Shown here piece after piece: positions 5,720 to 28,852 of a stretch of DNA of 64,000 bases. The position numbers and the translations under genes are program-made. Every line of letters begins with the position of its first letter. The first letter of the stretch is position 1. The stretch comes from an uncultured delta proteobacterium (lineage in GTDB: Bacteria; Desulfobacterota; RBG-13-43-22). Under the pieces are notes generated by a model. It saw only the letters and a list, made by a program, of their open reading frames with translations, did no database searches and was not told where the DNA came from. The stretch spans positions 384,001-448,000 of the forward strand of contig CAWBOS010000012.1 in assembly GCA_963790475.1 (NCBI GenBank), written 5' to 3'.

Positions 5720-5722
5720 TCG

Positions 5723-5856
5723 AAGGTTCAAGGTACAAGGATTAAAGTTTTGGTTTTTGGATTTCAGACAAGTCACTAAAAATAAGGTTCAAGGTACAAG
5801 GTCTAAGGTTTAGATTTTACCTTACACCTTACACCTTACACCTTACACCTTATACC
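5723..5856. repeat. Intergenic heptamer tandem/inverted repeat
   Basis: Runs of AAGGTNN (AAGGTTC AAGGTAC ..., twice) followed by the complementary run (CCTTACA)x4 CCTTATA. Confidence 0.85.
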
Positions 5857-5876
5857 AGAAATTTAAAAGGACAGCA

Positions 5877-6758: not shown

Positions 6759-6760
6759 AG

Positions 6761-7786: not shown

Positions 7787-7824
7787 AGAAGTAATTAACC
7801 CCATTCAAAAAGAGGAGGAAAATC

Positions 7825-9047: not shown

Positions 9048-10670
9048 ATGAAAGGCTTGATGCAGGATCAACCGCTTTTGATCTCCTCTCTCATCTCCTA
9101 TGCCGGCCTGTACCACGGCGAGGTGGAAATCGTCTCCCGGACCGTAGAGGGTTCCATACACCGCTACGGCTATCAACAGGCCCATAGGCGCTCGAAGCAG
9201 GTGGCCCAGGCGCTCCTGTCCCTGGGGGTGGAACCCGGTGATCGAATTGGCACCCTGGCCTGGAACGGGTACCGGCACTTCGAGCTGTACTTCGGCATTT
9301 CCGGCCTGGGTGCGGTTATGCACACCATCAACCCCAGGCTTTTTCCGGAACAGATCGTCTACATTGCCAACCATGCCGAAGACAGCTACCTGTTCCTGGA
9401 CCTGACCTTTGTCCCCCTGGTCGAATCCATCGCCCACGAACTGGCGACGGTCAAGGGCTTCGTCATCATGACCGACGAGGCCCACATGCCCAAGACCCGG
9501 CTGCCTAATGTCTCGTGTTATGAAACCCTGATCGGAGGCCAGAGCGGCAAATATGACTGGCCTAAGTTAGACGAACAGACGGCCTCCAGCCTGTGTTATA
9601 CCTCGGGGACGACCGGCAATCCCAAAGGGGTTCTCTACTCGCACCGCTCCACCGTGCTCCACAGTTATTGTGTCTGCACGGTGGACGCCCTGGGCCTTTC
9701 CAGCAGTGAGGTGGTTATGCCCGTGGTGCCCATGTTTCACGCCAACGCCTGGGGCAATCCCTATGGGGCGGCCATGTGCGGGGCCAAGATGGTCTTCCCC
9801 GGAGACAGAATGGATGGGCAGTCTATCTACGAACTTTTGGACCAGGAGAAGGTGACCCTGACCCTGGCTGTGCCTACCGTCTGGCTGATGCTTCTCCAGT
9901 ACCTCCGGGAGACCGGCCGGAAGCTGCCCTTTCTGAAACGGGTGCTGATCGGAGGGTCGGCCGTCCCGAAGTCCATGATCCAGACCTTCGAGCAGGAATA
10001 CGATGTCCAGGTCATTCACGGCTGGGGCATGACCGAGATGAGCCCTCTGGGAACGGTTGGCACTCTGAAGTGTAAATTCCGGGACCTGCCCTATGACGAA
10101 AAGCTGAACATCAAGGCCAAGCAGGGCCGGGCCATTTACGGCGTCGATATGAAAATCGTCGATGCCCAGGGCAAAGAGCTGCCTCGGGACGGAAAGGCCT
10201 TCGGACATCTTCTGGTCCGAGGTCCCTGGATCGTCAGCGGTTATTTCAAAGGCGAAGGCGGCCGGATTATTGACGATGAAGGCTGGTTCGACACTGGGGA
10301 CGTGGCCACCCTGGACCCGGACGGTTACATGCAGATCACCGATCGGGCTAAGGATGTGATCAAGTCGGGTGGTGAGTGGATCAGCTCCATCGATCTTGAA
10401 AACGACGCCATGGGGCACCCGGGAGTAGCCGAGGCCGCGGTCATTGGTGTGCCCCATCCGAAATGGGACGAACGTCCCCTTTTGCTGGTGGTCAGAAATA
10501 ATGGGGCGGCGGTCTCCGGAGAGGAAATCCTTGACTACCTGCGGGGCCGGGTGGCCAAATGGCAGGTCCCGGACGCGGTGATCTTCGTCGAGGAACTTCC
10601 CCATACAGCCACCGGCAAACTTCTCAAAACCAAGCTGCGGGAGGATTACAAGGATTTTAAATTGCCCTGA
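9048..10670 (+). CDS. Acyl-CoA ligase, 3-(methylthio)propionyl-CoA ligase (DmdB)/medium-chain fatty acid-CoA ligase-like
   Basis: [16 protein letters not shown]-terminus, [58 protein letters not shown]. Confidence 0.9.
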
Positions 10671-11147: not shown

Positions 11148-11783
11148 ATGATTCAAAAAAGCAAACCCCAAAGGGAGAGGATGTTGGCCGTTGCCGGGGA
11201 CCTGTTTTGGAAGAAGGGCTACGAAGGCACGACGATGCGGGACATCGCCAAGGCCTGCAGATGCAAGCCCCCCAATATTTATAATTTCTTCCTCAACAAA
11301 GAAACCATCCTTTATGAGATACTCCGGTCACAGTTGGAAAGCCTGATTTCCAGTGTCAGCCATCTGGAAAAGGATGAGACTACACCGCCGGTGGAACAGT
11401 TACGCCTCTTTATAACCGGCCACGCCGATTACATCTTCAGGGTGATCAAAACTTCCAAGTTAGTATTCGATGTTGAATTGGATAGCCTGTCCCCGGCCAA
11501 CCGGAAACGCATTATCAAAATGCGTGATGCCTATGAACATATTCTCAACAAGATTATTCGCCGGGGAATAGAATCAGGTGATTTTGCCCCGATAGACGAG
11601 AAGCTGGCGGCCTACAGCATCATCTCCATGATCATGCGGTCCATAATCTGGTTTTCCCCTGAGGGAAGATTGACCGTCCCCCAGTTGATCGATTTTATGG
11701 TTGATTTTTCCTTGAACGGATTGAGTGGAAAAAGGGACCTGGGCAGGGGGGCGGTTCGTTCCCGATCATCTGTGGTAAAATGA
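11148..11783 (+). CDS. TetR/AcrR family transcriptional regulator (KstR2-like C-terminus)
   Basis: HTH LFWKKGYEGTTMRDIAKAC..IYNFFLNKETIL; C-terminal WFSPEGRLT. Confidence 0.88.
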   Translation: MIQKSKPQRERMLAVAGDLFWKKGYEGTTMRDIAKACRCKPPNIYNFFLNKETILYEILRSQLESLISSVSHLEKDETTPPVEQLRLFITGHADYIFRVIKTSKLVFDVELDSLSPANRKRIIKMRDAYEHILNKIIRRGIESGDFAPIDEKLAAYSIISMIMRSIIWFSPEGRLTVPQLIDFMVDFSLNGLSGKRDLGRGAVRSRSSVVK

Positions 11784-11885: not shown

Positions 11886-12857
11886 TTAACCCTTTTCTTT
11901 GGTCAGCCCTGACCAAAGGACGAAGTCCAATCCTTCGCCTCTTGCCGTCCCAGCCAATTTCTCCATGGTTTCCTCCGGAATCAGGCTCTCATTTTCCAGA
12001 TTCCAGTTGAGCCCTAATCTTTGATATTTTGAAGTGCAGGTATTATTAAATGCCAGAAGATCGTATCGTTCAACGGTAGGAAGGTTTTCCCTTATGAACC
12101 GAGCCGTCTGTCTGATATTTTCCACCGAGTCATTGACCCCCGGGATAATGGGCGTACGTACCCAAATGGGCTTGCCTGTTTTCGATATCCTGCGGGCGTT
12201 TTCCAACACCAAATTTAAAGAGATGCCGGTAAGTTTTCGGTGATTGGCGGTGTTCATTATTTTGAGATCGTAGAGGACCAGGTCGGCCAGGTTCACCAGC
12301 CTTTGCAAGGTCGGCCACTTTGTTCCCCCGCAGGTGTCCAGGGCCAGGTGTATTCTTTCCTTCCTCAATCTCTCCATCAGGGCCACGGAAAAATCGGCCT
12401 GCAAGGAGGCTTCGCCGCCGGACAAGGTTACCCCGCCGCCTGATTTTTCATAAAACACCCGGTCCTGCAAAGCCCTGGCAGCCAGTTCATCGACCGTATA
12501 CTGTTTCCCGATCACCTCCAAGGCGCAGGCTGGGCATACCGTTTCACATTTTCCACAGGCATCGCAAAGGCTCCGATCGATGATCAGCCCTTCAGTAGTC
12601 AAATTCAGGGCCTCATTGGGGCAGACCTTCAGACATTCCTTGGCTCCCAGGCAACGCATTTCATACCAGATCAGTTCCGGAGAAGGTTTTATCCCTTCGG
12701 GATTATGGCACCAGGGACAGTGCATGGGGCAGCCTTTCATGAATAAGGAGGTGCGTATCCCCGGCCCGTCCTCGGTGGAATGAAGCTGGATGTTAAAGAT
12801 GAGGCCCTTCGGGCCGGTTTCCCCGTTTGTTATGGGATTGACAATCGAGTGAGACAT
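11886..12857 (-). CDS. Glycyl-radical enzyme activating protein (radical SAM with ferredoxin insert)
   Basis: IFNIQLHSTEDGPGIRT, GCPMHCPWCHNPE (CxxxCxxC), insert CLGAKECLKVCP..CDACGKCETVCP, SGGGVTLSGGE, LYDLK, RTPIIPGVND. Confidence 0.95.
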   Translation of the reverse strand: MSHSIVNPITNGETGPKGLIFNIQLHSTEDGPGIRTSLFMKGCPMHCPWCHNPEGIKPSPELIWYEMRCLGAKECLKVCPNEALNLTTEGLIIDRSLCDACGKCETVCPACALEVIGKQYTVDELAARALQDRVFYEKSGGGVTLSGGEASLQADFSVALMERLRKERIHLALDTCGGTKWPTLQRLVNLADLVLYDLKIMNTANHRKLTGISLNLVLENARRISKTGKPIWVRTPIIPGVNDSVENIRQTARFIRENLPTVERYDLLAFNNTCTSKYQRLGLNWNLENESLIPEETMEKLAGTARGEGLDFVLWSGLTKEKG

Positions 12858-12870
12858 AGTGGTCAGATTG

Positions 12871-12945
12871 GCGAGTTACGGGTTACGGGTTTAAAAGGTG
12901 GGCCCTTTTTCTATTCACCCGCAACCCGGAACCCGCAACATGCAA
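12871..12945. repeat. Intergenic heptamer tandem/inverted repeat
   Basis: GAGTTAC GGGTTAC GGGTTT ... CCCGCAA CCCGGAA CCCGCAA CATGCAA. Confidence 0.75.
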
Positions 12946-12953
12946 AGGATTAG

Positions 12954-15401
12954 TTAAATATCAAATTCCGTCCGGGCGATAATATCGTCCTGAAGGCCCT
13001 TGGACAGGTCCACAAAGCGATAGGAATATCCTGAAACCTTGACCATCAAATCAGGATAATTCCCCGGATTTTTTTGCGCGTCTAACAGGGTTTCCCGGCC
13101 CATGGGATTAAACTGGACCTGCCTGCCCCCCATTTCAAAATAACCTTCAATCAGGGCAGCAAATTTTTCTAAATTCTCTTCCGATTTTAGGGTCAGAGGA
13201 TTCAGGTTCATGTTCAAGGCTGTGCCACCGGATAATTTCGCCTGGCAGGCCTGCGCGGCCGAATGGAACACGGCAGTCATTCCATTGATATCCGTGCCGT
13301 TTGTGGGAGACATGCCATTGGATACAGCATCTCGGGCCAATCGACCGTCCGGCGTAGCGCCGAGGGCGTGGCCGGCCAAAACCTGTCCGCCGGCTGAAAT
13401 CATGAGCCCCCTGTAGGTACCGCCGTCCATAGGGCGTTTGTGTTTCCGGGATTCCTTGTCCAATAAATCTGTGACCCACAGGGCAATGGCGTCGGCCTTC
13501 GGATCGTTGGTACCGTACTTGGGCGCTTTGCGGAGCAATTGCTGTCTCAATTCTTCAGCACCTTTGAAATTATTGCGCAGATGTCTGACCAATTCCGCCA
13601 AGGTCACCAAATTTTCATCAAAAACAGCCCATTGGATCGCGGCCAGAGAATTGACCACCGTGGCCAGACCGTGGGCTGACACGGTACTATGATTGTATTT
13701 GGCCCCTCCCTGGGTAATGTCTCGGCCCGACTCGATGCAACCCTCGATGGTGGAGGATATAAGCGGCGTGGGGAAACCTTTGGCGAAGACCTCGTCCTTC
13801 ACGTCGCTGATCTTGACCATCATGGATACGGAATTGGACAACTGGGCGGCAAAGGCTTTTTTCACATCCTCAAATGACTTCATTTCAGAGACGGTCGGGG
13901 TCTTGACGCCGACCTCTTCCCACTTAGCCGCATACAGGCGGCCTTCGTTCAAGGTCGACTCAATGACCCGTTCGAAATGGCAAGAACTACCTGAACAATA
14001 ACCGTTACTGTTTCCCGTGCCGGCCAGTTCGGCGCAGCCAATGATGCTGTAATCCCTGGCGTCTTCGAGTGCGTAGCCATCCGCCATCAAGTCCTGGGTG
14101 GCCACCGTGTCGTTGTAAAAGGCGATGCCGGCTGTCCGCCTATGAACTTCGCAGGCCTTTAGCAGGAATTCCCGGGGCGTAACAGGGGCAATCCGGACGG
14201 CCAAACCGTTACGCAGGCCCTTCAAACGTCTTAAGCTTTCCAGCATCAGGTAGGAGACGTCGTTGACGGCATTTTTTCCGTTTCGATCCATCCCCCCGAT
14301 AGTGACGTTATTGGGACCGAACCCGTTGTAATGCGATAGCTTAATAAAATATTCTTCGACGATCTCCAGGCCTTCGTCTGGAGTGATCCGCCCGGCTTCC
14401 AAGTCTGCCTTGAAATAGGAGCAAAGGAACTGATCCATACGGCCGGGACAAAATATGGAGTCCTCGCCGTAGCTGATGGTCATCAGGACCTGGGTCATCC
14501 AGACGGATTGGACGGCCTCGATAAAAGTGCGGGGAGGCTCCGCCGGCACGCGGCGGCAGCGATCGGCGATGGCCAGCAGTTCCATTTTCCTGGCCCCTTC
14601 CGACTTTCGGGCCATCTCTTCCGCCAGGTCGGCATAGCGTTCGGTGTGCTCGCACACCGCATTGGCCGCCTCTTGGACCGATTCCAGGAAGTCCTGGCGC
14701 TGTTCGTAGTCTTGGTCTCCCTCTTTGAGCAGTCTTAGTTGTACGGCCGCCTGATCGGCAATGCCTTTGAAGCCCATCTCGAGAACTTTCTTCATACCGA
14801 TGGTGACATGCCCCTGCATATCAGCAACACCGGCAACGCTGGGTGTTGGCTGTTCCTTGGAAATTAAGCCTTCTTTCAGCCATTGGGCATGCATGAGACT
14901 CGACATGTTTTTGCCCAGCCAGTAAGGGTTGATTTCCTCCTTCATTTCCCTAATTTCGTCATCCGGCATGGTGAGCAGTTCTTTCAGCCACTCCGGGTTG
15001 CCGCCGTGACCGTTCTCCAACCAGCCGATGGAATTGACGTCCTGGCCGTGAAAAGGCATGGCAATCATGTTTACACGGTCCATATAGGTTCTTTCAATTC
15101 CCATGGGGCCGGCGATATTCTTACTCGCCTTTGCCCCGACCAGCCTCGCCTCATCATCAATCCTGATGGACATATAGCGAAGTGTTTCCGTAAGCCCCAG
15201 AGCTGCGCGCTTGCAGGGCGGACCACCTTCCGTACGCTTATAAGCCCTGGTATAATATCTGGCCCGCTCAATATCCCCTTCATAGGGACTGGCCAGTAAA
15301 GTCTCTCTCATCCGGCCGATCCTTTCGGAATATAATAAATCCTGGTCAGACGTTTCAAATACCTCTCGATTTATTTCTCTGGCTGCGGTTGTTGCTTCCA
15401 T
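12954..15401 (-). CDS. Glycyl radical enzyme (PFL2/dehydratase-like superfamily), paralog 2
   Basis: Start moved to ATG 15401 (RBS AAGGAG). Cys loop YSIIGCAE, PGRMDQ, PKYGTND, ATPDGR, QVQFN, Gly loop LMVKVSGYS, C-terminal QDDIIART. Confidence 0.93.
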   Translation of the reverse strand: MEATTAAREINREVFETSDQDLLYSERIGRMRETLLASPYEGDIERARYYTRAYKRTEGGPPCKRAALGLTETLRYMSIRIDDEARLVGAKASKNIAGPMGIERTYMDRVNMIAMPFHGQDVNSIGWLENGHGGNPEWLKELLTMPDDEIREMKEEINPYWLGKNMSSLMHAQWLKEGLISKEQPTPSVAGVADMQGHVTIGMKKVLEMGFKGIADQAAVQLRLLKEGDQDYEQRQDFLESVQEAANAVCEHTERYADLAEEMARKSEGARKMELLAIADRCRRVPAEPPRTFIEAVQSVWMTQVLMTISYGEDSIFCPGRMDQFLCSYFKADLEAGRITPDEGLEIVEEYFIKLSHYNGFGPNNVTIGGMDRNGKNAVNDVSYLMLESLRRLKGLRNGLAVRIAPVTPREFLLKACEVHRRTAGIAFYNDTVATQDLMADGYALEDARDYSIIGCAELAGTGNSNGYCSGSSCHFERVIESTLNEGRLYAAKWEEVGVKTPTVSEMKSFEDVKKAFAAQLSNSVSMMVKISDVKDEVFAKGFPTPLISSTIEGCIESGRDITQGGAKYNHSTVSAHGLATVVNSLAAIQWAVFDENLVTLAELVRHLRNNFKGAEELRQQLLRKAPKYGTNDPKADAIALWVTDLLDKESRKHKRPMDGGTYRGLMISAGGQVLAGHALGATPDGRLARDAVSNGMSPTNGTDINGMTAVFHSAAQACQAKLSGGTALNMNLNPLTLKSEENLEKFAALIEGYFEMGGRQVQFNPMGRETLLDAQKNPGNYPDLMVKVSGYSYRFVDLSKGLQDDIIARTEFDI

Positions 15402-15522
15402 TTTTTTCTCCTTATGATAAAAGAATTTTTCCTCTCCCTCATTCTTAGAAAACACTATTTGTCATGAGAACTAGGTTGGCTTAATATATTTGAATTATTT
15501 CTTTTTCAGGTCCCGTTTTTTT

Positions 15523-15546
15523 CTCCGAACTCCGAACTCCGAACTT
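15523..15546. repeat. Heptamer tandem repeat
   Basis: (CTCCGAA)x3 between the two GRE genes. Confidence 0.7.
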
Positions 15547-15568
15547 TTAACTCTTTACTTATTTCCCT

Positions 15569-18007
15569 TTACACCTCAAACTCCGTCCGTTCGATGATAT
15601 CGTTTTGAAGGGCCTTTGACAGATCAACAAACCGAAAGGAATAGCCCGAAACCTTGACCATCAGGTCAGGGTAGTTTTTCGGATTTTTCTGGGCATCCTT
15701 CAGGGTCTCTCGGCTCATGGGGTTGAATTGCACCTGCCGGCCGCCCAGGTCGAAATAACCTTCGATCAGCGAAACGAATTTGTCCAGACCCTCATCGGTC
15801 CTTATGGTCAGGGGGTTGAGATTCATATTGAAACCACAGCCATTGGACATGTTGGGAAAGCAGACCTGGGCGACAGAACGCATGGCGGCGGTCATGCCGT
15901 TTCGCTCGGTGCCGTTTGCCGGGGATATACCGTTGGAAACCGGCTGTCTGGCTAATCTCCCATCGGGAGTGGCCCAGCAATCACGGCCTTCGAAAAGCTG
16001 GGTTCCCGAGGCTACCAGTAGGGTGCGGTATACCCCGCCCTGCAGACGTTGATGTTTTCTGGCCTCCCGGCTGTAAAGGTCCGTTACCCAAAGGGCCAGT
16101 TCATCCACTTTGGGGTCGGCGTTACCGTATTTCGGGGCTTTGTGGATGAGCTGCTGCCTAAGGAGATCGGCCCCCTCGAAATTTTTACGCAAGTGTTTAA
16201 CCAGCTCTTCCAGGGTTATCAGTTTTTCCTCGAAAACGGCCCAGCGGATGGCCGCTAGGGAATTGGCGACAGTAGCTATGCCTCTGGCCGAGACGGAACC
16301 GTGGTTGTAAAAAGCACCGCCCCGGGTGATGTCCTGCCCGGATTCGAGGCATCCTTCAATAGTCGATGACAACAGGGGGGCGGGGAAGGAATCGGCGAAA
16401 AGCTGATCCTTGATCGTTGTTTTTTGGGCCATCAGGCCCATACTGTAGGAGAGCTGATCGGCAAAGGCCTTCTTGACTTCTTCAAAGCTCTTGAATTCAC
16501 CGGCCGGTGGGGTCTTGATCCCCAGTTGTTGCCAATTATAGGAGAAGGCCCGGCCCTCGTTCAGGGCCATCTCCAGGACGACTGAAAGGCGGACCCCGCT
16601 GCCGGCCGTATATCCGCTATTGTTTCCGGTGCCGGTGGGTTCCACACACCCGACAATCGAGTAATCCCGGGCATCTTCCAAGGCATAACCGTCTTTGAGC
16701 AAGTCCCTGATGACCACCGCATCATTGTAAAAGGCGACGCCGGCGGTATAGCGATGGGTCTCAGAGGCCTTGACCAGAAAATCACGGGGCGTTTTTTCTG
16801 AAATCCTTACGGCCAGGCCGTTGCGAAGTCCTTTCAGTCGCTGGTGGGCGTCGAGCATCAAATAAGAAAGTTCGTTGACCGCGTTGTCTCCATTCCGGTT
16901 AAGACCGCCGATAGTCACGTTATTAGGACCAAAGGAGATAAAGGTGGACAGTTTGATATAATATTCCTCGACGGCTTCCAGGCTATCTTCATAGGTAATC
17001 AGCGCGCTTTCCCGGTCTTTTTGGTAGTAGGGGTACAAAAATTGATCGACCCGGCCGGGACAGATGATCGAATCTTCACCGTAGCTCAATACCAGCAAGG
17101 CCTGGGTCATCCAGATGGACTGAAGGGCTTCCAGAAATGTACGTGGGGGTTCTGCCGGCACCCGCCAACAGCGAGAAGCAATCTGAAACAGTTCCCTTTT
17201 CCTTTGTCCATCCGCCTTTTGGGCCATCTCTTCAGCCAGGGAGGCATAGCGTTCGGCGTGCTTACACACGGCTGACGCTGTGACCTGAACGGATTCCAGA
17301 AAATCTTTGCGGAGGAAAAACTGGTCATCGTTGGGGTTAAGCTTAGTCAGTTGCCGCGCGGCCTGGGCGGCGATGCCCTTGAAACCCATAGTCAGCACTT
17401 TTCCAAGGCCGGCGGTTACATGCCCTTGCATATCGGCAATCTCGACCGGCGACGCAGACGGCTCATCTTTTTTATATAACCCCGCCTGTTTCCAGCCTAT
17501 GATCATCCTGCTTCTGATATCCTTGCCTTCCCAGTAGGGCAGGATTTCTTTGGTCAGCTCTTTGTGCATTTCTTCCGGCATATTAAGGAGAGACTTTAAA
17601 AATTCAGGACTTTGGCTTCCGGCCTTGTCCAAAAATCCAATATCATCGACGTCCTTGCCGTGAAAATTGGTGCCTATCAGAGTGACCATGCTTTTTGAGG
17701 ATCTTTCGATGCCGATGGGGCCGGCCACCTTCTTGAAGGTTTTTGCGCCCACCAGCCTTTCGTCGTCCTCGATCTTGATGGACATATGACGCAGGGTCTC
17801 CTCCAGTCCTTTGGCCGCCCGCAAGCAGGGAGGATCATTCTCTGTTTGCTTATAGCTCCTGGTATAATACCGGGCCCGCTCGATATCCGCCTCATAAGGG
17901 CTGGACAGCAGGTTTTCCCTTAAGCGGCCAATCCGCTCTGAATAAGGAACACCCCCAAGAACAGCCTTCCCTTCCGAAATTCCGGACCTATTGATTTGAG
18001 TCGTCAT
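15569..18007 (-). CDS. Glycyl radical enzyme (PFL2/dehydratase-like superfamily), paralog 1
   Basis: Cys loop YSIVGCVEP, PGRVDQ, PKYGNAD, ATPDGR, QVQFN, Gly loop LMVKVSGYS, C-terminal QNDIIERT. Confidence 0.93.
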   Translation of the reverse strand: MTTQINRSGISEGKAVLGGVPYSERIGRLRENLLSSPYEADIERARYYTRSYKQTENDPPCLRAAKGLEETLRHMSIKIEDDERLVGAKTFKKVAGPIGIERSSKSMVTLIGTNFHGKDVDDIGFLDKAGSQSPEFLKSLLNMPEEMHKELTKEILPYWEGKDIRSRMIIGWKQAGLYKKDEPSASPVEIADMQGHVTAGLGKVLTMGFKGIAAQAARQLTKLNPNDDQFFLRKDFLESVQVTASAVCKHAERYASLAEEMAQKADGQRKRELFQIASRCWRVPAEPPRTFLEALQSIWMTQALLVLSYGEDSIICPGRVDQFLYPYYQKDRESALITYEDSLEAVEEYYIKLSTFISFGPNNVTIGGLNRNGDNAVNELSYLMLDAHQRLKGLRNGLAVRISEKTPRDFLVKASETHRYTAGVAFYNDAVVIRDLLKDGYALEDARDYSIVGCVEPTGTGNNSGYTAGSGVRLSVVLEMALNEGRAFSYNWQQLGIKTPPAGEFKSFEEVKKAFADQLSYSMGLMAQKTTIKDQLFADSFPAPLLSSTIEGCLESGQDITRGGAFYNHGSVSARGIATVANSLAAIRWAVFEEKLITLEELVKHLRKNFEGADLLRQQLIHKAPKYGNADPKVDELALWVTDLYSREARKHQRLQGGVYRTLLVASGTQLFEGRDCWATPDGRLARQPVSNGISPANGTERNGMTAAMRSVAQVCFPNMSNGCGFNMNLNPLTIRTDEGLDKFVSLIEGYFDLGGRQVQFNPMSRETLKDAQKNPKNYPDLMVKVSGYSFRFVDLSKALQNDIIERTEFEV

Positions 18008-18021
18008 AACTTGATACCCCT

Positions 18022-18240
18022 TCAGTTAACCATAAATTGTGGTCCATTTTTTATAAGTTTGGTCGCCTCCTTGATGATCCGGTCGACCAGGTCCTGGACC
18101 TTAGGCAGGCCTTCCACCCTCTGGCGCATTCTTAGCCAGCCATGAGGGCCTTTCCCCGGTTCCCCCGACCACGGCCTTGATGACCTCCCCTTCTTTGGCC
18201 ACCAGTTCCTCGGCACCGGGGGTGTTATATCCATCGGGTG
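18022..18240 (-). pseudogene. Remnant of a nitronate monooxygenase/FabK-like flavoprotein gene
   Basis: C-terminal QRVEGLPKVQDLVDRIIKEA resembles the end of NMO/FabK-family proteins; the upstream part lies in another frame and there is no intact gene. Confidence 0.45.
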
Positions 18241-18278
18241 TATCCAAATCAATCGAGAGGGAATGGGTTTTTGAATAT

Positions 18279-18328
18279 ATTACTTATGTAATAAGCTTAA
18301 ATTAAATAAATCGAATTGGTATGTCAAG
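18279..18328 (-). promoter_or_regulatory. Promoter and operator of the GRE operon
   Basis: Minus strand reads CTTGACATACCAATTCG ATTTATTTAATTT ... ATTACATAAGTAAT (operator at 18279-18292). Confidence 0.75.
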
Positions 18329-18833
18329 TTAAAAAAACACTGCATCTTATATTAACTTAATAGTTTAAAGTGTGGCAAAAGAAGATCTAGAAAAAGAAAG
18401 GAGATCATTGGGCCTACCGTTTATGCCAGCCGGAAAACCTCCCGTCCCCTTTCAAAAAGATTTTTGACAACCTCCTATGAGAAGATTACCAAAAAAGACG
18501 ATTCGGGGATAACTTATCCCTTTCCTCTTGGTCAGGATATTTTGAAAATCCATCCTTCCATTGATTCTTTTGTATTTATTGGGGGAAGCGATTTATTTGT
18601 GTTACATTATTTCGGTCATCATCGTTTCAATAGTCCATAAAAGGGATCTTCAACAAAACCGCAAGGGATAGGGGCGGAATGAAACCCGGCTTGGTAAATT
18701 TTGGGATACAAGACTATGAAGACCTGAACAATGCCGTAGCTTTGTGAAATTTACAAGTTCCTCTTTACCATCTCTGGGATTTCTGTTAAAGGTTACAAAG
18801 GCGCATGGATGAATTCCAAGGAAATATTTAAAA

Positions 18834-19586
18834 ATGAAAAAAACGACCAGAACCGTTCAACAACCAGAGATTGAAAAAAAAACCTCGATGGTGGAAAAAA
18901 TTGTTTTAACCCTCAGGAAAGAAATAATCTCTGATGATTCATTGGCAGGCAGCTCGCTTTCTGAAAAGAAATTGTCCCTTCGTTTCGGTGCCTCCAACCA
19001 CACTATTCGCGGGGCATTGCAGACCTTGGCCAGAGAGGGATTAGTCGAGATCGCACATGGCCGCGCAACCAAAGTTAATGATTACAAAACTAATGTAGGC
19101 CTTGATGTGTTTCCGGATCTCCTTATCACCTGTCCGGAGATCATAACGCCGGATGTATTTTCCGTGTATTATCAATATATCCTCTGGTTCTATGACAAAA
19201 TCATTATTGCGGCTACCCGAAAAGCGAAGCCCTTCCACAAAAAGAAACTCATGAAAATTGTTTCGGCCTTTAAAGATGATATGACCGGTGAAGAATACTG
19301 GGAAAATCACACCCTTTTTTTTCGCGAGCTTCTAAAAATAGGTGATAATGTCTTGTTAATGATGTTTCACAACTCCCATGTCAGAATACGCCAAAGGCTC
19401 GGGGAGTTGGGGCTTATGAGGGAGCTGAATTTGCCTCCTACTTATCATAAAGAGACCCGTGAGCAACTGGTGGAAGCCATTTGTGGCAACCATGAAAAAC
19501 GGGCCTTGGAGGTTGCCAGGAACTATAGAGAATCGACGGAAAAATCCGTGGAAAGGACCTTTAAAAAAGCCAATGTCTTTTTATAA
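18834..19586 (+). CDS. GntR family (FadR-like) transcriptional regulator
   Basis: wHTH LSEKKLSLRFGASNHTIRGALQTLAREGLVEIAHGRATKV; FCD-like C-terminus. Confidence 0.85.
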   Translation: MKKTTRTVQQPEIEKKTSMVEKIVLTLRKEIISDDSLAGSSLSEKKLSLRFGASNHTIRGALQTLAREGLVEIAHGRATKVNDYKTNVGLDVFPDLLITCPEIITPDVFSVYYQYILWFYDKIIIAATRKAKPFHKKKLMKIVSAFKDDMTGEEYWENHTLFFRELLKIGDNVLLMMFHNSHVRIRQRLGELGLMRELNLPPTYHKETREQLVEAICGNHEKRALEVARNYRESTEKSVERTFKKANVFL

Positions 19587-19691
19587 AGACGGATAAACTC
19601 CCCCGATTTCCTTTGTAACCCCCCTGTTACCTCCTGATATAAACCCCTTTCCTGGGGTATTTTTTCTCTGCGGCCCAAGGCAGTGTTTTCA

Positions 19692-19746
19692 CTTGACAGA
19701 CCAATTCGGATTCATATAATTTGGTTTAACTCATTACATAAGTAAT
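19692..19746 (+). promoter_or_regulatory. Promoter and operator of the Fe-S protein pair
   Basis: CTTGACAGACCAATTCG GATTCA TATAAT ... ATTACATAAGTAAT (operator at 19733-19746), the same operator as at 18279. Confidence 0.8.
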
Positions 19747-19880
19747 GATATTAGATTTAATACTTTTAATTCCCCGACGTGTGCTGCGGGGAATTTTCCC
19801 TTTGAAATCGTTGGCCAAGGTTCAGACCTCCGGGAAAACCCCTTGAATAGACCCTATCATGAAATAAGGAGAGAAGGACG

Positions 19881-21035
19881 ATGGATGAAAACATTCGTAA
19901 GGCCGAGGAAATGATCAAAAAAAAGATCGATCCCATTTATAAAGAAGTGTCCAGACGGGTCCAGGCCGGACTGGAGGACTCCAAATATTTTCCCTGGATC
20001 ATGGAAAGACTGATGAATGTGGACCAGGCCAGGTTGGTCCTGGCCCTGCCGGACCAGGAACGGGATAGTTCCCTGGTCCGATTGGAGGTCTCCCAAAAAT
20101 TTGCTGAGAAGCTGCATCTCGATAAAGAATCGGCGGACAGTTATGTCCGAGAACTATATGAAAAGGGACTTCTTTTTCCGACCAGTAAGGGACCGCAGCT
20201 TCCCCGCAGTATGGGACAATGGCTGGATACCCAGAATAATATTCACTATGACCAGGCCTTGGGAGATGAATATTATGCTCTGATCGGTTTATTCAGCGAT
20301 TTTGAACTGGGGCCTCCCCGGGAGGAGCGAATCGCCCAAAGAATTGCCGCCGGTTTGCGGGGCACCTCGGGGATCATTCCCCGCTGGAAGGCCATCAAGG
20401 ACATCCCCGGGGTTCTGCCGGGAGAAGACGTCCGGGAGCTGCTCAAGGTCCAGGAAGACTTTGCAGTGCTCCACTGCGCCTGCCGGAAAAGATATAAAAA
20501 CCGTGAGTGCGGAGTGCCGGAGGAAATGTGCCTGGTGGTCGGCAAGGCCGCGCTCTACAACATCGACCGGAGGGCCGGCCGGCGGATCAGCCGCGAAGAG
20601 GCCCTGGATCTGCTCAGCAATGTAACGGCCAAGTATCCGGTAGTTCATGTCGGAACTCGAACCAATGACCCGAAAAAATTCCGCGGGGTTATTTGTAACT
20701 GCCACTATGACTGTTGCGAAGTCCTGAGAACACCTTGCCTCATCGGCAGTAAATACCCAATTACCGAATATTATGCCAAAAGCCGTTATCGGGCCACCGT
20801 TGACCCGGCCAAATGCGTCGGCTGCCGGATCTGTGTGGATAAGAGATGCCAGTTCGGGGCGGCCCAGATGAAATTTTATCCCGAATACGGCCAGGAACGG
20901 GCCTTTGTTGACTATGAAAAATGCATGGGCTGCGGCTGCTGTGTGGAGACTTGCCCGAAAGGGGCCCATGGTATGAAGCTGGTTGAGCCCCCGGAATCCT
21001 TTGATGGCGATTCCCGGATGAATTTAGATACCTAA
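19881..21035 (+). CDS. Cys-rich 4Fe-4S dicluster protein (wHTH-like N-terminus, CxCR...CNCHxDCC domain)
   Basis: CACRK, ICNCHYDCC, CVGCRICVDKRCQF, CMGCGCCVETCP. Confidence 0.85.
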   Translation: MDENIRKAEEMIKKKIDPIYKEVSRRVQAGLEDSKYFPWIMERLMNVDQARLVLALPDQERDSSLVRLEVSQKFAEKLHLDKESADSYVRELYEKGLLFPTSKGPQLPRSMGQWLDTQNNIHYDQALGDEYYALIGLFSDFELGPPREERIAQRIAAGLRGTSGIIPRWKAIKDIPGVLPGEDVRELLKVQEDFAVLHCACRKRYKNRECGVPEEMCLVVGKAALYNIDRRAGRRISREEALDLLSNVTAKYPVVHVGTRTNDPKKFRGVICNCHYDCCEVLRTPCLIGSKYPITEYYAKSRYRATVDPAKCVGCRICVDKRCQFGAAQMKFYPEYGQERAFVDYEKCMGCGCCVETCPKGAHGMKLVEPPESFDGDSRMNLDT

Positions 21036-21072
21036 CACCCGGAAAACCCGGGAGTGATTTAGGAGGAATAAA

Positions 21073-22149
21073 ATGAATTTCATTGATCCCGTTTATCAAG
21101 AATTGGCGACAAAAATCGGCAAACCAGATCTAAAGAATTTACCGTACCTTCTGGCCAAACTGGCCGATGAGGAGGAGGCCCGGATACTGAACGAGCTTTC
21201 GGCTTCAAGTGAGGTCATTGCCGGGAGGTTGAATATGGACCGGGAAGTAGTAGACCGGCGTCTGAAGTCCTTATTCGATAAGGGGCTTGTTTTCTCAGGC
21301 AAGACCGGCTGGCACCTGATTCGCTCCTGGGGCGCATTACACGACAGCGCCGGATCGGCCGATGTGGTTAAATACCCCGAGGTTTTAGATAAGGCCTTTT
21401 TTAAATTGTTGCAGGCCACCAGCGAAGAAGACCGGGGGCAGAGGGTTGAGGATGTAATCAGCGGCAAGGCCCCGTTGAAAAGGAGTATGCGAGTCATTCC
21501 CCGCTGGCGGTCGATCAAGGATATGCCCGGCCTGCTGCCTTATGAAGACATCCGGCAGATATTCAAAGCCGCGGAACCGATCGCTATTTTACCTTGCGCC
21601 TGTAAAAGGGCCGAACCGGACAGGGCCTGTCAAGACAACATTCCGGAAGTCACCTGTGTGACCTGCGGCCGGGCGGCCCAATACAACCTCAACCGCGGGG
21701 CCGGGAAAAAGCTCAGCTACGATGAGGTCCTGGAGGTTTTTGAAGGATTTGACCAGCTTCAGCTCGTTCATTTGGTCGGGAATAGCAACCGAATGCCCTC
21801 GTTGATCTGCAATTGCCACCATGATTGCTGCGGGCAGTTTTTGGTCAACGCCAAGGCCCAGGAACGTCTCAGTCAGGATGTCATAGTAAAGAGCCGGTTC
21901 ATCGCCACCATCGACCCGGAAAAGTGCAGTGGCTGCGGGCTGTGCCAGGAAAAGGGATGTCCGATCAAAGCAGACGAAATCCGTTTTTACCCGGAGCTTG
22001 GCCGGGAAAGGGCCTCTATCGATGCTGAAAAATGCATCGGCTGCGGACTGTGCGTGATTAACTGCCCTTCGGAGGCACGAACAATGAAGATGGTCCGGCC
22101 GCCGGATTATATTCCAGCACCCGATGGGATGAGCGGGGAAGCGGACTAA
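21073..22149 (+). CDS. Cys-rich 4Fe-4S dicluster protein, paralog of 19881
   Basis: CACKR, ICNCHHDCC, CSGCGLCQEKGCP, CIGCGLCVINCP; shares IPRWxxIKDxPGxLP with 19881. Confidence 0.85.
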   Translation: MNFIDPVYQELATKIGKPDLKNLPYLLAKLADEEEARILNELSASSEVIAGRLNMDREVVDRRLKSLFDKGLVFSGKTGWHLIRSWGALHDSAGSADVVKYPEVLDKAFFKLLQATSEEDRGQRVEDVISGKAPLKRSMRVIPRWRSIKDMPGLLPYEDIRQIFKAAEPIAILPCACKRAEPDRACQDNIPEVTCVTCGRAAQYNLNRGAGKKLSYDEVLEVFEGFDQLQLVHLVGNSNRMPSLICNCHHDCCGQFLVNAKAQERLSQDVIVKSRFIATIDPEKCSGCGLCQEKGCPIKADEIRFYPELGRERASIDAEKCIGCGLCVINCPSEARTMKMVRPPDYIPAPDGMSGEAD

Positions 22150-22851: not shown

Positions 22852-24273
22852 ATGAAAACGGGTAAAGGAATTTTAATGCTTTTCTGTGTTCTTTCTTTTT
22901 TCTTCCTTTTAACAGCCCTGAGTTCGACCCAGGCCACGGCGGCGGTGAAAGCCAGATTTGATGTCAACAAAATGGCTGACATGTCCGACTTCGATCCCAA
23001 CAACTTTCCGAACCCCACTGGCGATACCATCAAGATCGCTATTGTGGCTACCTTTTCCGGTCCGGCAGCGGCGGTGGGGGAAGGTTTCTGGCTCGATGCG
23101 ACCTGGGCCGCCTATGACATCAACAAGAGGGGCGGCCTCATGGTAGACGGCAAAAAGAAGCTGGTTCAGCTTTTCAAGGCCGATACCATGTCGAGACCTG
23201 ACCAGGCCAAGAGAATCTGTGAGCAGATGGTCCTGCAGGATGGGGTCAAGTTCCTTTGGGGCGCCGACGGCAGCCACATCGTGAAAGTCATGAACCAGGT
23301 GGCCAATAAATATAAGGTCATTTCCGTGAACATGATTTCCTTATCCGATGAACTTCAGGATTCCCAGAATTTTTCCCGCTACGCCTTTATGACCTGGTGG
23401 CAGACTTCACAGGTCGGCCGTGCTTTCGCCCATTTTTACGCTCAAAGGAAAAAAGAGAAAAAATTTTACATTATGTGTCAGGACTACATGTTCGGCCATG
23501 ATATGGGAGAAAACTTCAAAAAAGCCTTAAAAGAATACTATCCCGAGGCCCAGGTAGTTGGCGAGGATTATCATAAACTCTTCCTGACCGATTATGCCCC
23601 TTATATTTCCAAGATCAAGGCCTCCGGCGCCGAGGTCGTATTCACCGGGGATTGGGATCCGGATGCCACCAACCTGCTCAAACAATCCCGAAACATGGGG
23701 CTCAACATTCCTTTTGCCCATATTTATATGGGTAACCCGGCCACCCTGGCTTCCCTGGGGGTTAAAGCGACCACAGGCCTGGTGATTGCAGGCCCTTATG
23801 GGAGAAAGAATCCTGCTTTCCCCGCCAATGATCCGAATAACTATGTTAAATACTGGAAAATGATGGAGGATGCCCATAAAAGATTCAAAGCGCCTTATAA
23901 TGGAGTGCAGTACTCGCTGGGGTGGGATCCCTTGGCGATGGAGTTTGATTGGCTTCTCAGCGTCATCGAAAGGGCCGGGAGTACGGACCCCGAAAAGATC
24001 ATCAAGACCTGGGAGGGAGATAGTTATGAATATGTAAACGGCCATATCAAAACCATGCGGGCCTGCGATCACAATACGATCGAGGATTTTTATGTCACTG
24101 AATATGTCCCACCCGATCAGCAAAAAGTCTCTTACAATATTCCGCCCTACCATTGGACCGATAAAAGTGCCTATTTTGGACCCACTGTCGTGATACCGGC
24201 GGAAAAAGACCTTCCCTGGATGGACCCGAAGCTGGACCGCTGCCGGGGGAAGAATCCCGCTTCGGCGAATTAA
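22852..24273 (+). CDS. ABC transporter substrate-binding protein (branched-chain/Peripla_BP_6 type)
   Basis: Signal peptide; TIKIAIVATFSGPAA, DINKRGG, QDYMFG, DYAPYISKIKASGAEV, MRACDH. Confidence 0.88.
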   Translation: MKTGKGILMLFCVLSFFFLLTALSSTQATAAVKARFDVNKMADMSDFDPNNFPNPTGDTIKIAIVATFSGPAAAVGEGFWLDATWAAYDINKRGGLMVDGKKKLVQLFKADTMSRPDQAKRICEQMVLQDGVKFLWGADGSHIVKVMNQVANKYKVISVNMISLSDELQDSQNFSRYAFMTWWQTSQVGRAFAHFYAQRKKEKKFYIMCQDYMFGHDMGENFKKALKEYYPEAQVVGEDYHKLFLTDYAPYISKIKASGAEVVFTGDWDPDATNLLKQSRNMGLNIPFAHIYMGNPATLASLGVKATTGLVIAGPYGRKNPAFPANDPNNYVKYWKMMEDAHKRFKAPYNGVQYSLGWDPLAMEFDWLLSVIERAGSTDPEKIIKTWEGDSYEYVNGHIKTMRACDHNTIEDFYVTEYVPPDQQKVSYNIPPYHWTDKSAYFGPTVVIPAEKDLPWMDPKLDRCRGKNPASAN

Positions 24274-24355
24274 ACAAAAATCCGGAGCGTGAGGTGTTTG
24301 GTGCCTCGATTGAATAACTAAAAAAATAAATTTGAAAAACAAAGCAAAACCGTCA

Positions 24356-24394
24356 CCCCAGCGAACCCAGGACCTAATCGGCGGTTCGCTGGGG
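24356..24394 (+). terminator. Intergenic stem-loop after the binding-protein gene (terminator or mRNA stabiliser)
   Basis: CCCCAGCGAACC...GGTTCGCTGGGG perfect 12-bp stem. Confidence 0.55.
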
Positions 24395-24540
24395 AACAAG
24401 ATTAATAAAATATCCCCCAAAAGTGGATTTCGGTTTAGCCGGAAAGGCATGAAAAGATTTTGATCACTTTTCAGCCGGAGTCGCTTAATTTTGCACAGGT
24501 GCGTAGCCATTCGGCCATTTTTTTTGAAAGGTCCTAACCA

Positions 24541-25419
24541 ATGAGTCCAACAACTGCCATGTATGTTTCCCAGGGGATACATGGGATCGCTTACGGCATG
24601 GTGCTGTTTCTGGTGTCATCCGGCGTTACCCTGATCATCGGCATGATGAACATATTAAATTTGGCCCATGCAGCCTTCTTCATGCTTGCGGCCTATTTTT
24701 GCTATGAGGTCATAGCACTAACCGGAAATTTCTGGTTGGGTTTGCTCCTGGCCCCGATCTTCACCGCTATCTGCGGAATGCTCATGGAAAGATTTTTGCT
24801 CCGACCATTAAGAGGTTATGGGACCATAGGGGAATTGATCCTAACCGTAGGGGTCAGCTTTATCATCATAGCCATGGTCAAGGTCATCTGGGGCACTTCC
24901 AGCCTTCAGGTTAAGGTTCCTCCTTTGCTGGCTGGATTAATCACTATTTCCGGTCTGGAATATCCGATCTATCGACTTTTTGTGATTGGAATGGCCCTGC
25001 TGGTTTTGGGGTTTATGGCCCTGTTTCTGTATAAGACCCGGGTGGGCACTATCGTTCGGGCGGCGGTTTCCGACGGGGATATGGTCAATGCCCTGGGGAT
25101 TAATATCCCTTTGCTCTTTACCTTCGTTTTCGGCGTGGGTATCTGGCTGGCCGGGGTGGCCGGGGTGGCCATAGCCCCCATATTGACCGTTTTTCCCGGC
25201 CTGGCCGACCAAATGGGTATGGATGCCTTTATTGTGGTGGTAGTGGGAGGATTCGGAAGCCTTACCGGGGCATTTATGGTGTCCATTATTTTCGGCTTGC
25301 TAAGTTCCTACGGTGTTCAGTTCCTTTCCGGGATGGCGCCTCTGTTGATGTTTATCTTTATGGCCATTGTCATGATTTTTTGGCCCCATGGTTTTTTCGG
25401 AGAAGGTGAAGAAGAATGA
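24541..25419 (+). CDS. ABC transporter permease (LivH-like)
   Basis: GIAYGMVLFLVSSGVTLI, LNLAHAAF, AFIVVVVGGFGS. Confidence 0.9.
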   Translation: MSPTTAMYVSQGIHGIAYGMVLFLVSSGVTLIIGMMNILNLAHAAFFMLAAYFCYEVIALTGNFWLGLLLAPIFTAICGMLMERFLLRPLRGYGTIGELILTVGVSFIIIAMVKVIWGTSSLQVKVPPLLAGLITISGLEYPIYRLFVIGMALLVLGFMALFLYKTRVGTIVRAAVSDGDMVNALGINIPLLFTFVFGVGIWLAGVAGVAIAPILTVFPGLADQMGMDAFIVVVVGGFGSLTGAFMVSIIFGLLSSYGVQFLSGMAPLLMFIFMAIVMIFWPHGFFGEGEEE

Positions 25420-26387: not shown

Positions 26388-26402
26388 TTCGGAGAAGGTC
26401 GG

Positions 26403-27176: not shown

Positions 27177-27248
27177 TAATTAAGAGGCTACAATAGCCGA
27201 TCTGATATGCGAAAATCATAGTTTGTGCGCTCTGCGCAAGGAGCAAAA

Positions 27249-28435: not shown

Positions 28436-28852
28436 ATGGAACGTACATTGTCAATTATTAAACCCGACGGTGTGGCCAAGGGGCTGATCGGAGAGGTCCT
28501 TAGACGATTTGAATCCAACGGGCTTAAGGTGGCGGCCATGAAGATGATTGCTATGAGTAAGAAACAGGCCGAGGGCTTTTATGACGTCCATCGGGAAAAA
28601 CCATTTTTTGAAAGTCTGACCGATTTTATGTCCTCCGGACCCTGTGTAGTGCTGATCCTCGAAGGAGAAGGGGCTATCGACAAAAATCGAAAACTGATGG
28701 GGGCTACCGATTATACTAAGGCCGACCCCGGGACCATCCGGGCCGATTTCGCCAGCAGTATCGAGAAAAATATCGTCCATGGTTCCGACGGCCCGGACAC
28801 GGCCCGTTATGAAATCGGGTATTTCTTCAATGCCCTGGAGATTGTTGGGTAG
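28436..28852 (+). CDS. ndk: Nucleoside diphosphate kinase
   Basis: [34 protein letters not shown]. Confidence 0.97.

Follow-up and report, generated by a model that had tools for sequence, protein, structure and literature searches.

A candidate glycyl radical enzyme system with two paralogous eliminase-class enzymes and an unnamed family of iron–sulfur proteins in an uncultured deltaproteobacterium

A 64,000-nucleotide stretch of the genome of an uncultured delta proteobacterium (Desulfobacterota; assembly GCA_963790475.1, contig CAWBOS010000012.1, positions 384,001 to 448,000), hereafter called the window, carries genes for two paralogous glycyl radical enzymes (GREs), GRE-A and GRE-B, a single activase, a GntR-family regulator and two cysteine-rich iron–sulfur (Fe-S) proteins, FeS1 and FeS2. 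Judged by their sequences, both GREs carry a complete set of catalytic residues and fall in an extensive, so far uncharacterised clade within the eliminase/isomerase class, while FeS1 and FeS2 belong to a family that has no name. The explanation that accounts best for the data as a whole, and which we put forward tentatively, is a unit of two operons, one for the GREs and their activase and one for the Fe-S proteins, in which the latter would act as the redox module of the GRE system.

Genes were called from a listing of open reading frames (ORFs) together with Pfam and NCBIfam scans, sets of 13, 40 and 23 window ORFs being run against Pfam. A first-pass annotation, made from the bare sequence, had drawn a map of six genes (the activase, two GREs, the GntR regulator and two Fe-S proteins), all of which were found again in their places. 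On the minus strand lie the gene for GRE-A (812 amino acids; 15569–18007; 517 bits for the PFL-like domain PF02901 and 98 bits for Gly_radical, PF01228), that for GRE-B (12954–15455; 494 and 94 bits for the same two domains) and, 96 nucleotides downstream of GRE-B, that for the activase (11886–12857). The two GREs are 63% identical across 792 residues. The ORF of GRE-B encodes 833 residues if translation starts at a GTG and 815 if it starts at the ATG at 15401 (codon 19); alignments of the protein begin near residue 40, and the ATG is the probable start. The activase scores 328 bits with TIGR02494 (cut-off 174.35) and is a radical SAM protein whose ferredoxin-like insert accommodates auxiliary clusters (Radical_SAM, Fer4_12 and Fer4 domains). 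On the plus strand follow the GntR-family regulator (18834–19586; PF00392, 49.7 bits against a cut-off of 27), FeS1 (384 amino acids; 19881–21035), which combines Fer4-type Pfam domains with Cys-rich motifs, and FeS2 (358 amino acids; 21073–22149), a paralogue of FeS1 with the same Cys pattern (35% identity, E = 4e-79).

To collect relatives of the GREs, an alignment of the clade (A1) was run against a set of genomes in which each species is represented once; this yielded 61 loci from about 51 genomes, designated here by L numbers. Together with the window these loci gave 66 near-full-length GREs, which were used for motif counts and for a FastTree phylogeny. Both window proteins possess the radical glycine, in the sequence LMVKVSGYS, and the catalytic cysteine on the Cys loop; GRE-A keeps the motifs QGH, GCVE and KVSGYS, and GRE-B keeps QGH, GCAE and KVSGYS. 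Their placement is based on hidden Markov model (HMM) and PDB sequence scores. The best PDB match is the B12-independent glycerol dehydratase 1r8w (448 bits for GRE-A, 419 for GRE-B), followed by CutC, propanediol dehydratase and HypD. In an alignment of GRE-A with 1r8w, H196 corresponds to His164, C454 to Cys433 and E456 to Glu435. H196 falls opposite the histidine of the GVGHVS sequence of 1r8w and, by alignment only, is invariant in all 66 rows of the clade, as is the CXE motif (C454-V-E456 in GRE-A, C-A-E in GRE-B). According to the sections of a recent review that deal with these enzymes, all GRE eliminases and isomerases keep the CXE motif (PMC13450708, sections 5.6 and 5.7), and in glycerol dehydratase Glu435 deprotonates the C1 hydroxyl and His164 protonates the leaving hydroxyl (section 5.6). 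Since the CXE motif and the equivalent of His164 are kept, and eliminases are the best PDB matches, GRE-A and GRE-B are best assigned to the eliminase/isomerase class and would most simply be C–O-cleaving enzymes.

Neither protein is close to any characterised enzyme, in line with the first-pass annotation, which took the pair to be part of a candidate undescribed regulon. Besides the modest best PDB scores given above, every NCBIfam equivalog score is less than half of its cut-off: for GRE-A and GRE-B, respectively, HypD scores 506 and 483 bits (cut-off 1100), HpsG 482 and 450 (1000), HpfG 469 and 427 (1000), CutC 441 and 387 (1050), PRK09983 416 and 399 (1109), IAD 354 and 328 (1100), HPAD 296 and 269 (1150) and PFL 132 and 119 (994). 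The PFL2-3 subfamily model, TIGR01774, is also missed (546 and 532 against 678). Among PDB entries, PFL reaches only 107–120 bits.

The two GREs weakly resemble MasD (243 and 220 bits) and TutD (234 and 212 bits) and might on that account be taken for X-succinate synthases, which add hydrocarbons to fumarate, and PFL2-like archaeal GREs have indeed been annotated as alkyl- or benzylsuccinate synthases at 29–33% identity in the part of the literature that bears on them (PMC8163825). We consider this reading hardly credible. The scores of 212–243 bits stand against 419–448 bits for glycerol dehydratase, and the Glu of the CXE motif and the His164 equivalent are both kept. Furthermore, the solubility of BSS and MASS is described as needing small beta and gamma subunits (PMC13450708, section 4.2), and none of the 23 small intergenic ORFs (at least 45 amino acids, positions 1–30000) matched a small-subunit or microcompartment family, the sole match being a nucleoside diphosphate kinase. 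On the strength of the scores and of the missing small-subunit genes the X-succinate synthase assignment was rejected. BMC and EutN families were likewise lacking among the three sets of window ORFs scanned with Pfam, so that the earlier statement that the locus has no BssB/C- or HpdC-like small subunits and no microcompartment genes holds for the small and the larger ORFs alike.

The clade to which GRE-A and GRE-B belong is large. In a large protein database, the clusters that share at least 56% identity with GRE-A number more than 120, all under generic names, and several contigs encode two or three paralogues. The hosts include Thermodesulfobacteriota or ‘Deltaproteobacteria’, Dehalococcoidia and other Chloroflexota, Syntrophomonadaceae and other Bacillota, Actinomycetota, Acidobacteriota and archaea (Freyarchaeota, Promethearchaeota, Nitrososphaerales and Vulcanisaeta); L060, at 29% identity, is an outlier. 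QGH and GC[AVT]E are retained in 66 of the 66 GREs and the VSG glycine motif in 65, the only miss being a truncation at a contig end. The motifs MQGH, SYG(ED)S and KVSGYS are specific to the clade, and an activase homologue is found in 37 of the 61 related loci.

Some features of individual loci may be recorded here. In a Vulcanisaeta sp. (L058, 9998–12498) the gene for the GRE homologue is interrupted and reads as six ORFs in a row, reflecting either a pseudogene or poor sequence. The loci of Actinomycetota (L045, L047, L048, L052, L061 and others) show the variant motifs SYGMA and RVSGYC, usually have no activase adjacent in the flanks that were fetched, and have recurring B12-binding radical SAM proteins and unnamed proteins of about 366 amino acids as neighbours. 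A family of about 420–450 amino acids that matches neither Pfam nor NCBIfam is encoded in seven GRE loci (L002, 15795–18486; L004, 20046–21401; L005, L016, L022, L024 and L059), often adjoining genes for MerR-TetR regulators or ABC transporters.

In the tree, GRE-A and GRE-B fall into two different groups, each with 100% local support: GRE-A with L001_9965, L003_3498, L002_10001 and L004_9959, and GRE-B with L003_5979, L057_3527, L011_2189, L004_12460, L002_12510 and L001_12378. The Cys loop differs between the groups, reading GCVEPTGTGNNSGYTA in all five A rows and GCAE[LI]AGTGNSNGYCS in all seven B rows. The genes stand in tandem, A before B, in the window and in L001 to L004, with the activase downstream where present; since A and B form separate, fully supported orthologue groups, the tandem must be old. 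We favour the interpretation that GRE-A and GRE-B act on two related substrates and share one activase. Paralogous GREs acting on epimers or stereoisomers are described for PflD and YbiW and for HypD, HplG, HpyG and HpzG in the corresponding sections of the review (PMC13450708, sections 5.6 and 5.7).

The first-pass annotation had left a choice between two substrates and a heterodimer. An obligate GRE-A/GRE-B heterodimer, which would be a new GRE architecture, seems to us quite improbable. Conservation of the tandem with a single activase in the window and in L001 to L004 would suit it, as would the occurrence of independent tandem pairs, made up of two distinct clades, in L015, L017, L018, L019, L030 and L031. 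However, L011 has a lone B-type gene, lying between the regulator and the activase, and in L057 the A protein keeps only residues 13–183 and 702–812 beside an intact B. Moreover, the catalytic Gly, Cys, Glu and His are kept across the 66 clade members (Gly in 65, one being truncated), which means that neither partner looks like a degenerate regulatory subunit. GREs are also described as having a dimerisation interface in common (PMC13450708, heading of section 4.4). Because B occurs without an intact A in L011 and L057, two substrates fit better, and the obligate heterodimer was rejected on the evidence of these two loci.

Two of these cases deserve a brief description. The stretch 168–5974 of L057 is apparently decaying: its Fe-S gene is split into overlapping ORFs (168–836 and 829–1161) and one ferredoxin Cys has become Arg; its activase, like its GRE-B, is intact. 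The six loci with independent pairs are from Dehalococcoidia, whose own conserved GRE pair derives from two other subclades, is accompanied by one activase, and has as neighbours acyl-CoA dehydrogenases, Opp-type binding proteins, a carboxylesterase, a family III CoA-transferase and a CoA ligase.

The two Fe-S proteins share the motifs CxC[RK]...C...C and CNCHxDCC and two copies of CxxCxxCxxx(x)C. In FeS1 an N-terminus of winged-helix-like character precedes a domain in which eight Cys and one His are invariant, and a 2×[4Fe-4S] ferredoxin domain forms the C-terminus; Pfam recognises only Fer4-type domains, at residues 305–362 (Fer4, Fer4_7 and Fer4_10 above cut-offs). In an alignment of 34 family members, the residues that are invariant outside the ferredoxin domain are C199, C201, C210, C217, C272, C274, H275, C278 and C279, and the eight ferredoxin Cys are invariant as well. 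Next to the Cys/His residues stands a strongly conserved IPRW...PG.LP.ED motif, with P167, W169, G177 and P180 invariant. FeS1 and FeS2 probably hold four clusters. They have no hydrophobic segment and are predicted to be soluble, and Pfam detects no flavin, molybdopterin or nucleotide domain in them.

The AlphaFold2 (AF2) model of FeS1 has a predicted local distance difference test score (pLDDT) of 92.5. With this full model, Foldseek returned no PDB match at E ≤ 1e-3; the weaker matches cover the ferredoxin domain only (HdrA, NuoI and PscB), and a high-potential iron–sulfur protein (HiPIP) or rubredoxin fold is absent from the PDB matches listed. A PDB sequence search likewise found the ferredoxin domain alone and no relative of the Cys-rich part. 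The CxC/CxCH pattern, we presume, resembles the motif of ferredoxin:thioredoxin reductase (FTR). Similarity to FTR catalytic subunits or HdrB-like CCG domains was sought by PDB sequence search and Foldseek and did not appear; this is weak evidence, because the model of the N-terminal part alone has a pLDDT of 65. That model, computed from ten sequences (alignment A6), gave weak Foldseek matches to MarR-like winged helices and repressors, all at E > 0.1. The winged-helix-like character of the first 100 or so residues is seen also in a weak HTH_Crp_2 match in FeS2 and in HTH_11, HTH_20 or MarR-type Pfam domains in several homologues, and this part of the protein has a slightly basic composition (median net charge +2, pI 9.1).

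A phmmer search with residues 1–301 of FeS1 against 1.84 billion representatives gave 584 matches at E ≤ 1e-3. Among the 150 matches listed, of 71–441 amino acids, none is fused to another enzyme. In their sources the homologues are named only ‘ferredoxin’, ‘4Fe-4S binding protein’ and similar, and the ESM Atlas holds only clusters that are unnamed or called ‘4Fe-4S binding’, with no named look-alike for residues 150–300.

A link between this family and the GREs is indicated by the related loci. After clustering the ORFs of all 61, and counting as co-occurrence a gene of the Fe-S family within 10 kb of a clade GRE, we found the family in 12 loci (L003, L006, L009, L012, L022, L023, L024, L029, L033, L041, L057 and L059). 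This makes it the second most frequent family of neighbours, after the activase (37 loci) and the ABC ATPases (16 loci and the window). In ten of the 12 loci the Cys-rich domain is clear (E < 1e-15 with an HMM of the N-domain), while it is weak in L023 and only the ferredoxin part is found in L012; some of the conserved Cys are missing from the proteins of L012, L023 and L041. Taxonomically, the gene is present in 10 of 18 loci with, by our assignment, a Thermodesulfobacteriota or ‘delta’ affiliation, as against two from Chloroflexota (L012 and L023) and none from Actinomycetota. It adjoins the activase gene in L009, L022, L023, L033 and L059, and in L009, L023 and L033 it lies immediately downstream of the activase in the same direction, as the last gene of the GRE-activase operon. 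The proteins of L029 and L033, the latter encoded directly 3′ of the activase, are 51–53% identical to FeS2; the other neighbouring Fe-S proteins are 17–32% identical to FeS1 or FeS2, with the Cys pattern retained in most. In L003 and L057, which share the A-B synteny of the window, an Fe-S gene occupies the same divergent upstream position at 28–32% identity, which looks like paralogue displacement. Two things argue for a functional link: diverged paralogues turn up repeatedly in differing gene orders, and the two operons of the window share an operator. The co-occurrence that the first-pass annotation had proposed to check is therefore present, robustly in ten loci, and at the same time partial, resting mostly on distant paralogues and missing near L001, L002 and L004.

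The shared operator consists of two mutually inverted copies of about 60 nucleotides, one at 18279–18334 (minus strand), 272–327 nucleotides ahead of the start codon of GRE-A, and the other at 19686–19746 (plus strand), ahead of FeS1. The former has a TTGACA box and the palindrome ATTACATAAGTAAT; the latter has TTGACA-16-TATAAT, a 12/12 match to the promoter consensus at 19693–19720, and then ATTACATAAGTAAT. The inverted arms comprise 23 nucleotides at 91% and 33 nucleotides at 76% identity. When one copy is reverse-complemented and aligned with the other, 53 of 96 columns are identical, including CTTGACA.ACCAATTCG and a block of 16 bases that contains ATTACATAAGTAAT. Exact copies of this 14-nucleotide palindrome occur at these two sites only within the 64 kb of the window; looser matches, with up to three mismatches, number eight against 3.8 expected, which is the level of chance. 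The earlier description of two units with a common promoter/operator and the GntR gene between them is thus substantiated.

A terminator-like hairpin (19643–19658) follows the GntR gene, which for this reason looks like a transcription unit of its own between two operator-bearing promoters. In view of the shared operator, the GntR protein probably controls both flanking operons and would do so by binding to ATTACATAAGTAAT. Its C-terminal part shows weak FadR/NanR similarity (40–49 bits against cut-offs of 189–260, the FadR models scoring 46–49). A different type of regulator occurs elsewhere: a protein of about 308 amino acids, in which an N-terminal MerR helix-turn-helix (HTH) is fused to TetR_N, is encoded divergently upstream of the GRE in 12 loci (L001, L002, L003, L004, L009, L011, L014, L016, L022, L024, L057 and L059), twice in L022 and in L059. 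The window has the GntR gene and a plain TetR gene in place of this fusion. In the long leaders, Rfam found no riboswitch (positions 17900–19950), the only match being a chance-level one to the SurA small RNA (15.9 bits against 100). The leader between the promoter/operator and the start of GRE-A (18022–18283, minus strand, about 270 nucleotides) is G+C-rich and contains two frames without stops, 85 and 60 codons long and overlapping each other, which have no Pfam match, Rfam match or similarity to proteins of the locus; blastx of this leader and of other intergenic stretches against the locus proteins gave nothing useful. It may be the remnant of a gene or a structured leader.

These observations can be assembled into a working scheme. 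The leftward operon would provide GRE-A, GRE-B and their one radical SAM activase, and the rightward operon FeS1 and FeS2. The activase would install the glycyl radical on each GRE, which is probably a homodimer and would then take a hydrogen atom from its substrate, a small hydroxylated compound of the organic-acid or amino-acid-like type brought in by the flanking Liv-type ABC systems. The Glu would deprotonate the hydroxyl and the adjacent C–O bond, or possibly another C–X bond, would be cleaved to give a carbonyl product, to be CoA-activated and oxidised by the neighbouring CoA ligases and by HpaB/AbfD-like or β-oxidation-type enzymes. Sharing the activase, GRE-A and GRE-B might act on two related substrates or on stereoisomers. 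FeS1 and FeS2, in turn, would most likely feed low-potential electrons to the clusters of the activase and thus allow it to install the radical or to renew it. Our best guess is that they serve the GRE/activase system as partners in electron transfer; we rank this role first because the genes stand next to activase genes and are probably co-regulated, and because the proteins have about four predicted clusters and no recognisable catalytic domain. A prediction of the complex between the activase (alignment A4) and FeS2 (alignment A5) gave a score of 0.00 and a mark of 0.32, which amounts to no verdict, and was not used.

Several observations weigh against this assignment. No gene of the Fe-S family lies within 10 kb of the GRE in 49 of the 61 loci, and L001, L002 and L004, with the A-B pair and their 10-kb flanks complete, are among them (on the contig of L002, the Fe-S genes of L009 follow about 17 kb further on). 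FeS1-like proteins at 44–62% identity come from Dehalococcoidales and Chloroflexota, and the sampled GRE loci of Dehalococcoidales do not have them; since close relatives of FeS1 thus occur in lineages whose GRE loci mostly lack the family, it is not restricted to GRE loci. The association is, besides, concentrated in one GRE subclade, marked by ‘SYGED’ (11 of 29 tree rows, against 2 of 37 elsewhere), which a substrate-specific role in the pathway would explain as well as, or better than, a general donor to the activase. No GntR homologue is found in any of the 61 related loci, 12 of which have the MerR-TetR fusion instead, and the wiring of the regulon would therefore be specific to this genome. 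Finally, neither the His nor the CXE residues tie the enzymes to one particular leaving group.

The concentration in the ‘SYGED’ subclade may hint that FeS1 and FeS2 are pathway oxidoreductases that act on the substrate, the product or the leaving group of the GREs. In that case the Cys-rich site would be a catalytic cluster, or a cluster plus a disulfide, and the 2×[4Fe-4S] domain would wire it to ferredoxin. The eight invariant Cys and the His beyond the ferredoxin domain, set beside IPRW...PG.LP.ED, are also more than a simple carrier needs, and the presumed likeness of the CxC/CxCH pattern to the FTR motif would agree with such a site. On the other hand, the proteins resemble no enzyme in sequence or fold, the Foldseek matches being confined to the ferredoxin domain and falling short of E ≤ 1e-3; they are devoid of flavin, molybdopterin and nucleotide domains; and in five loci the gene adjoins that of the activase rather than catabolic genes. 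We regard this role as possible, if somewhat unlikely, and place it a close second to that of redox partner. The third rank goes to a role as sensor-regulator, FeS1 and FeS2 being in this event winged-helix transcription factors that use Fe-S clusters to sense redox state or oxygen and so gate an operon of oxygen-sensitive GREs. The winged-helix-like, mildly basic N-terminus and the HTH matches of FeS2 and of its homologues would agree with such a function, as would the MarR-like Foldseek matches of the low-confidence model. Yet every one of those Foldseek matches has E > 0.1, the loci already have regulators (GntR in the window, the MerR-TetR fusion in 12 others), and the Fe-S gene is the last of the GRE-activase operon in L009, L023 and L033. 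The four predicted clusters, including a full 2×[4Fe-4S] ferredoxin domain, would also be unusual for a sensor, and altogether we consider this function improbable.

The 49 loci without a nearby Fe-S gene, and the many family members from lineages whose sampled GRE loci have none, could alternatively mean that the Fe-S genes have nothing to do with the GREs and stand beside them by accident. This is very unlikely in the face of the promoter/operator architecture of about 60 nucleotides that is common to both operons, and of the distant members (17–32% identity) that recur beside GRE or activase genes in at least nine genomes. The gene orders differ among these genomes, for which inherited synteny offers no explanation. 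Returning to the role of redox partner, it is tempting to go one step further and to regard the Fe-S proteins as a new class of GRE accessory redox proteins: a reductase that charges the activase, a ‘switch’ that quenches and re-arms the radical, or a supplier of two electrons per turnover. A whole uncharacterised GRE clade, spread widely among subsurface anaerobes and archaea, would then depend on a family that has no known relative in fold. This more far-reaching proposal is speculative and, in our estimation, rather unlikely. Were two electrons indeed supplied per turnover, these would be the first PFL-like GREs with a net reductive reaction; such a reaction is catalysed by class III ribonucleotide reductases.

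The unit is flanked by two Liv-type ABC transporter sets (4218–9045 and 22852–27962), by a CoA ligase gene (9048–10670) whose product scores above a curated 3-(methylthio)propionyl-CoA ligase model (897 bits against 822), by a second, truncated CoA ligase gene (1–1494), by the TetR gene (11148–11783) and by a gene for a protein of the HpaB/AbfD superfamily that stays below the HpaB cut-offs (2275–3765). Such genes recur in the related loci: AMP-forming CoA ligases in eight loci and the window, acyl-CoA dehydrogenases in eight loci, the HpaB/AbfD-like protein in four loci and the window, and Liv or Opp ABC systems. The transporters and ligases to which the first-pass annotation had drawn attention are thus part of a wider pattern. 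In the downstream ABC set the second Liv-type permease gene (25416–26387, plus strand) is split into an ORF of 103 amino acids without a Pfam match and one of 144 amino acids whose similarity to BPD_transp_2 is confined to the C-terminal half (profile positions 146–266 of 269), with a third frame open in between; a frameshift or an assembly error could be the cause. The nucleoside diphosphate kinase gene (28436–28852, plus strand; NDK, 187 bits) overlaps a longer ORF on the opposite strand (28451–28933), which a longest-ORF rule would wrongly choose. A protein of 805 amino acids (30954–33371, minus strand) has a partial DUF362 match at residues 286–434 as its sole Pfam match, and does not match the HMM of the Fe-S family. 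The remainder of the window is ordinary chromosome, with an ATP synthase operon, thioredoxin and its reductase, homoserine dehydrogenase and the like.

In the literature searched, including the sections consulted of the GRE review PMC13450708, we found neither this GRE clade nor an Fe-S partner of this type described; of the other papers, PMC13101534 concerns, in the part seen, an unrelated benzene cluster and PMC12583861 a fumarate-adding enzyme, and the words glycyl, Pfl and radical do not occur in PMC11887813. The 2026 review states, in its section 7, that entire GRE clades are still without experimental validation and that in vitro activation is the main practical bottleneck. The present system gives such work a well-defined object. 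Its clade has dozens of members, found in sulfate reducers, syntrophs, Dehalococcoidia, Actinomycetota and archaea, and the conserved pair of paralogues hints at two related substrates. The Fe-S family may be the missing natural electron input of the activase, in which case it could aid the reconstitution of difficult GREs, or a new pathway enzyme, in which case it would define a new family of Fe-S enzymes. The shared operator and the GntR-family regulator, for their part, provide a simple handle on the inducing substrate.

Compared with known systems, what is new here is that a conserved pair of paralogous GREs of the eliminase/isomerase class is combined with a putatively co-regulated family of uncharacterised Fe-S proteins. 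GRE-A and GRE-B have in common with the GRE 1,2-eliminases and isomerases (glycerol dehydratase, propanediol dehydratase, HypD, HpyG, HpzG, HpfG, CutC, IslA/IseG, HpsG, HplG, PflD and YbiW) the PFL-like plus Gly_radical fold, an adjacent activase with an auxiliary-cluster insert and a His aligned with His164 of glycerol dehydratase. They differ from them in scoring below all equivalog cut-offs and below PFL2-3, in the motifs of their own, MQGH, SYG(ED)S and KVSGYS, and in the environmental host range of their clade, which covers Thermodesulfobacteriota, Dehalococcoidia, Syntrophomonadaceae, Actinomycetota and archaea. As a model for the GRE-A/GRE-B pair, the epimer- and stereoisomer-specific paralogues PflD and YbiW of Escherichia coli and the hydroxyproline GREs are the nearest parallel, even though the PDB scores of PflD (8yjo; 354 bits with GRE-A and 330 with GRE-B) and YbiW (8yjn; 327 and 329 bits) are below those of glycerol dehydratase.

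FeS1 and FeS2 invite comparison with the small subunits of HPAD (gamma), BSS (beta and gamma) and MASS (beta, gamma and delta), which are also iron–sulfur proteins encoded together with a GRE. The latter are described as small accessory proteins resembling HiPIP or rubredoxin, for which electron transfer or reduction of the glycyl radical has been proposed (PMC13450708, section 4.2). In contrast, FeS1 and FeS2 have 384 and 358 residues, a winged-helix-like N-terminus, an eight-Cys domain and a bacterial-type 2×[4Fe-4S] domain, and they are transcribed divergently from the GREs. In the role proposed for them, the reduction of the activase cluster, they would rather be likened to flavodoxin, which, as set out in section 2.2 of the same review, reduces the [4Fe-4S] cluster of the PFL activase from 2+ to 1+ before SAM is cleaved. 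Flavodoxin, however, is a general housekeeping carrier that is not encoded with the GRE, whereas FeS1 and FeS2 would be members of a dedicated, co-regulated family of multi-cluster proteins.

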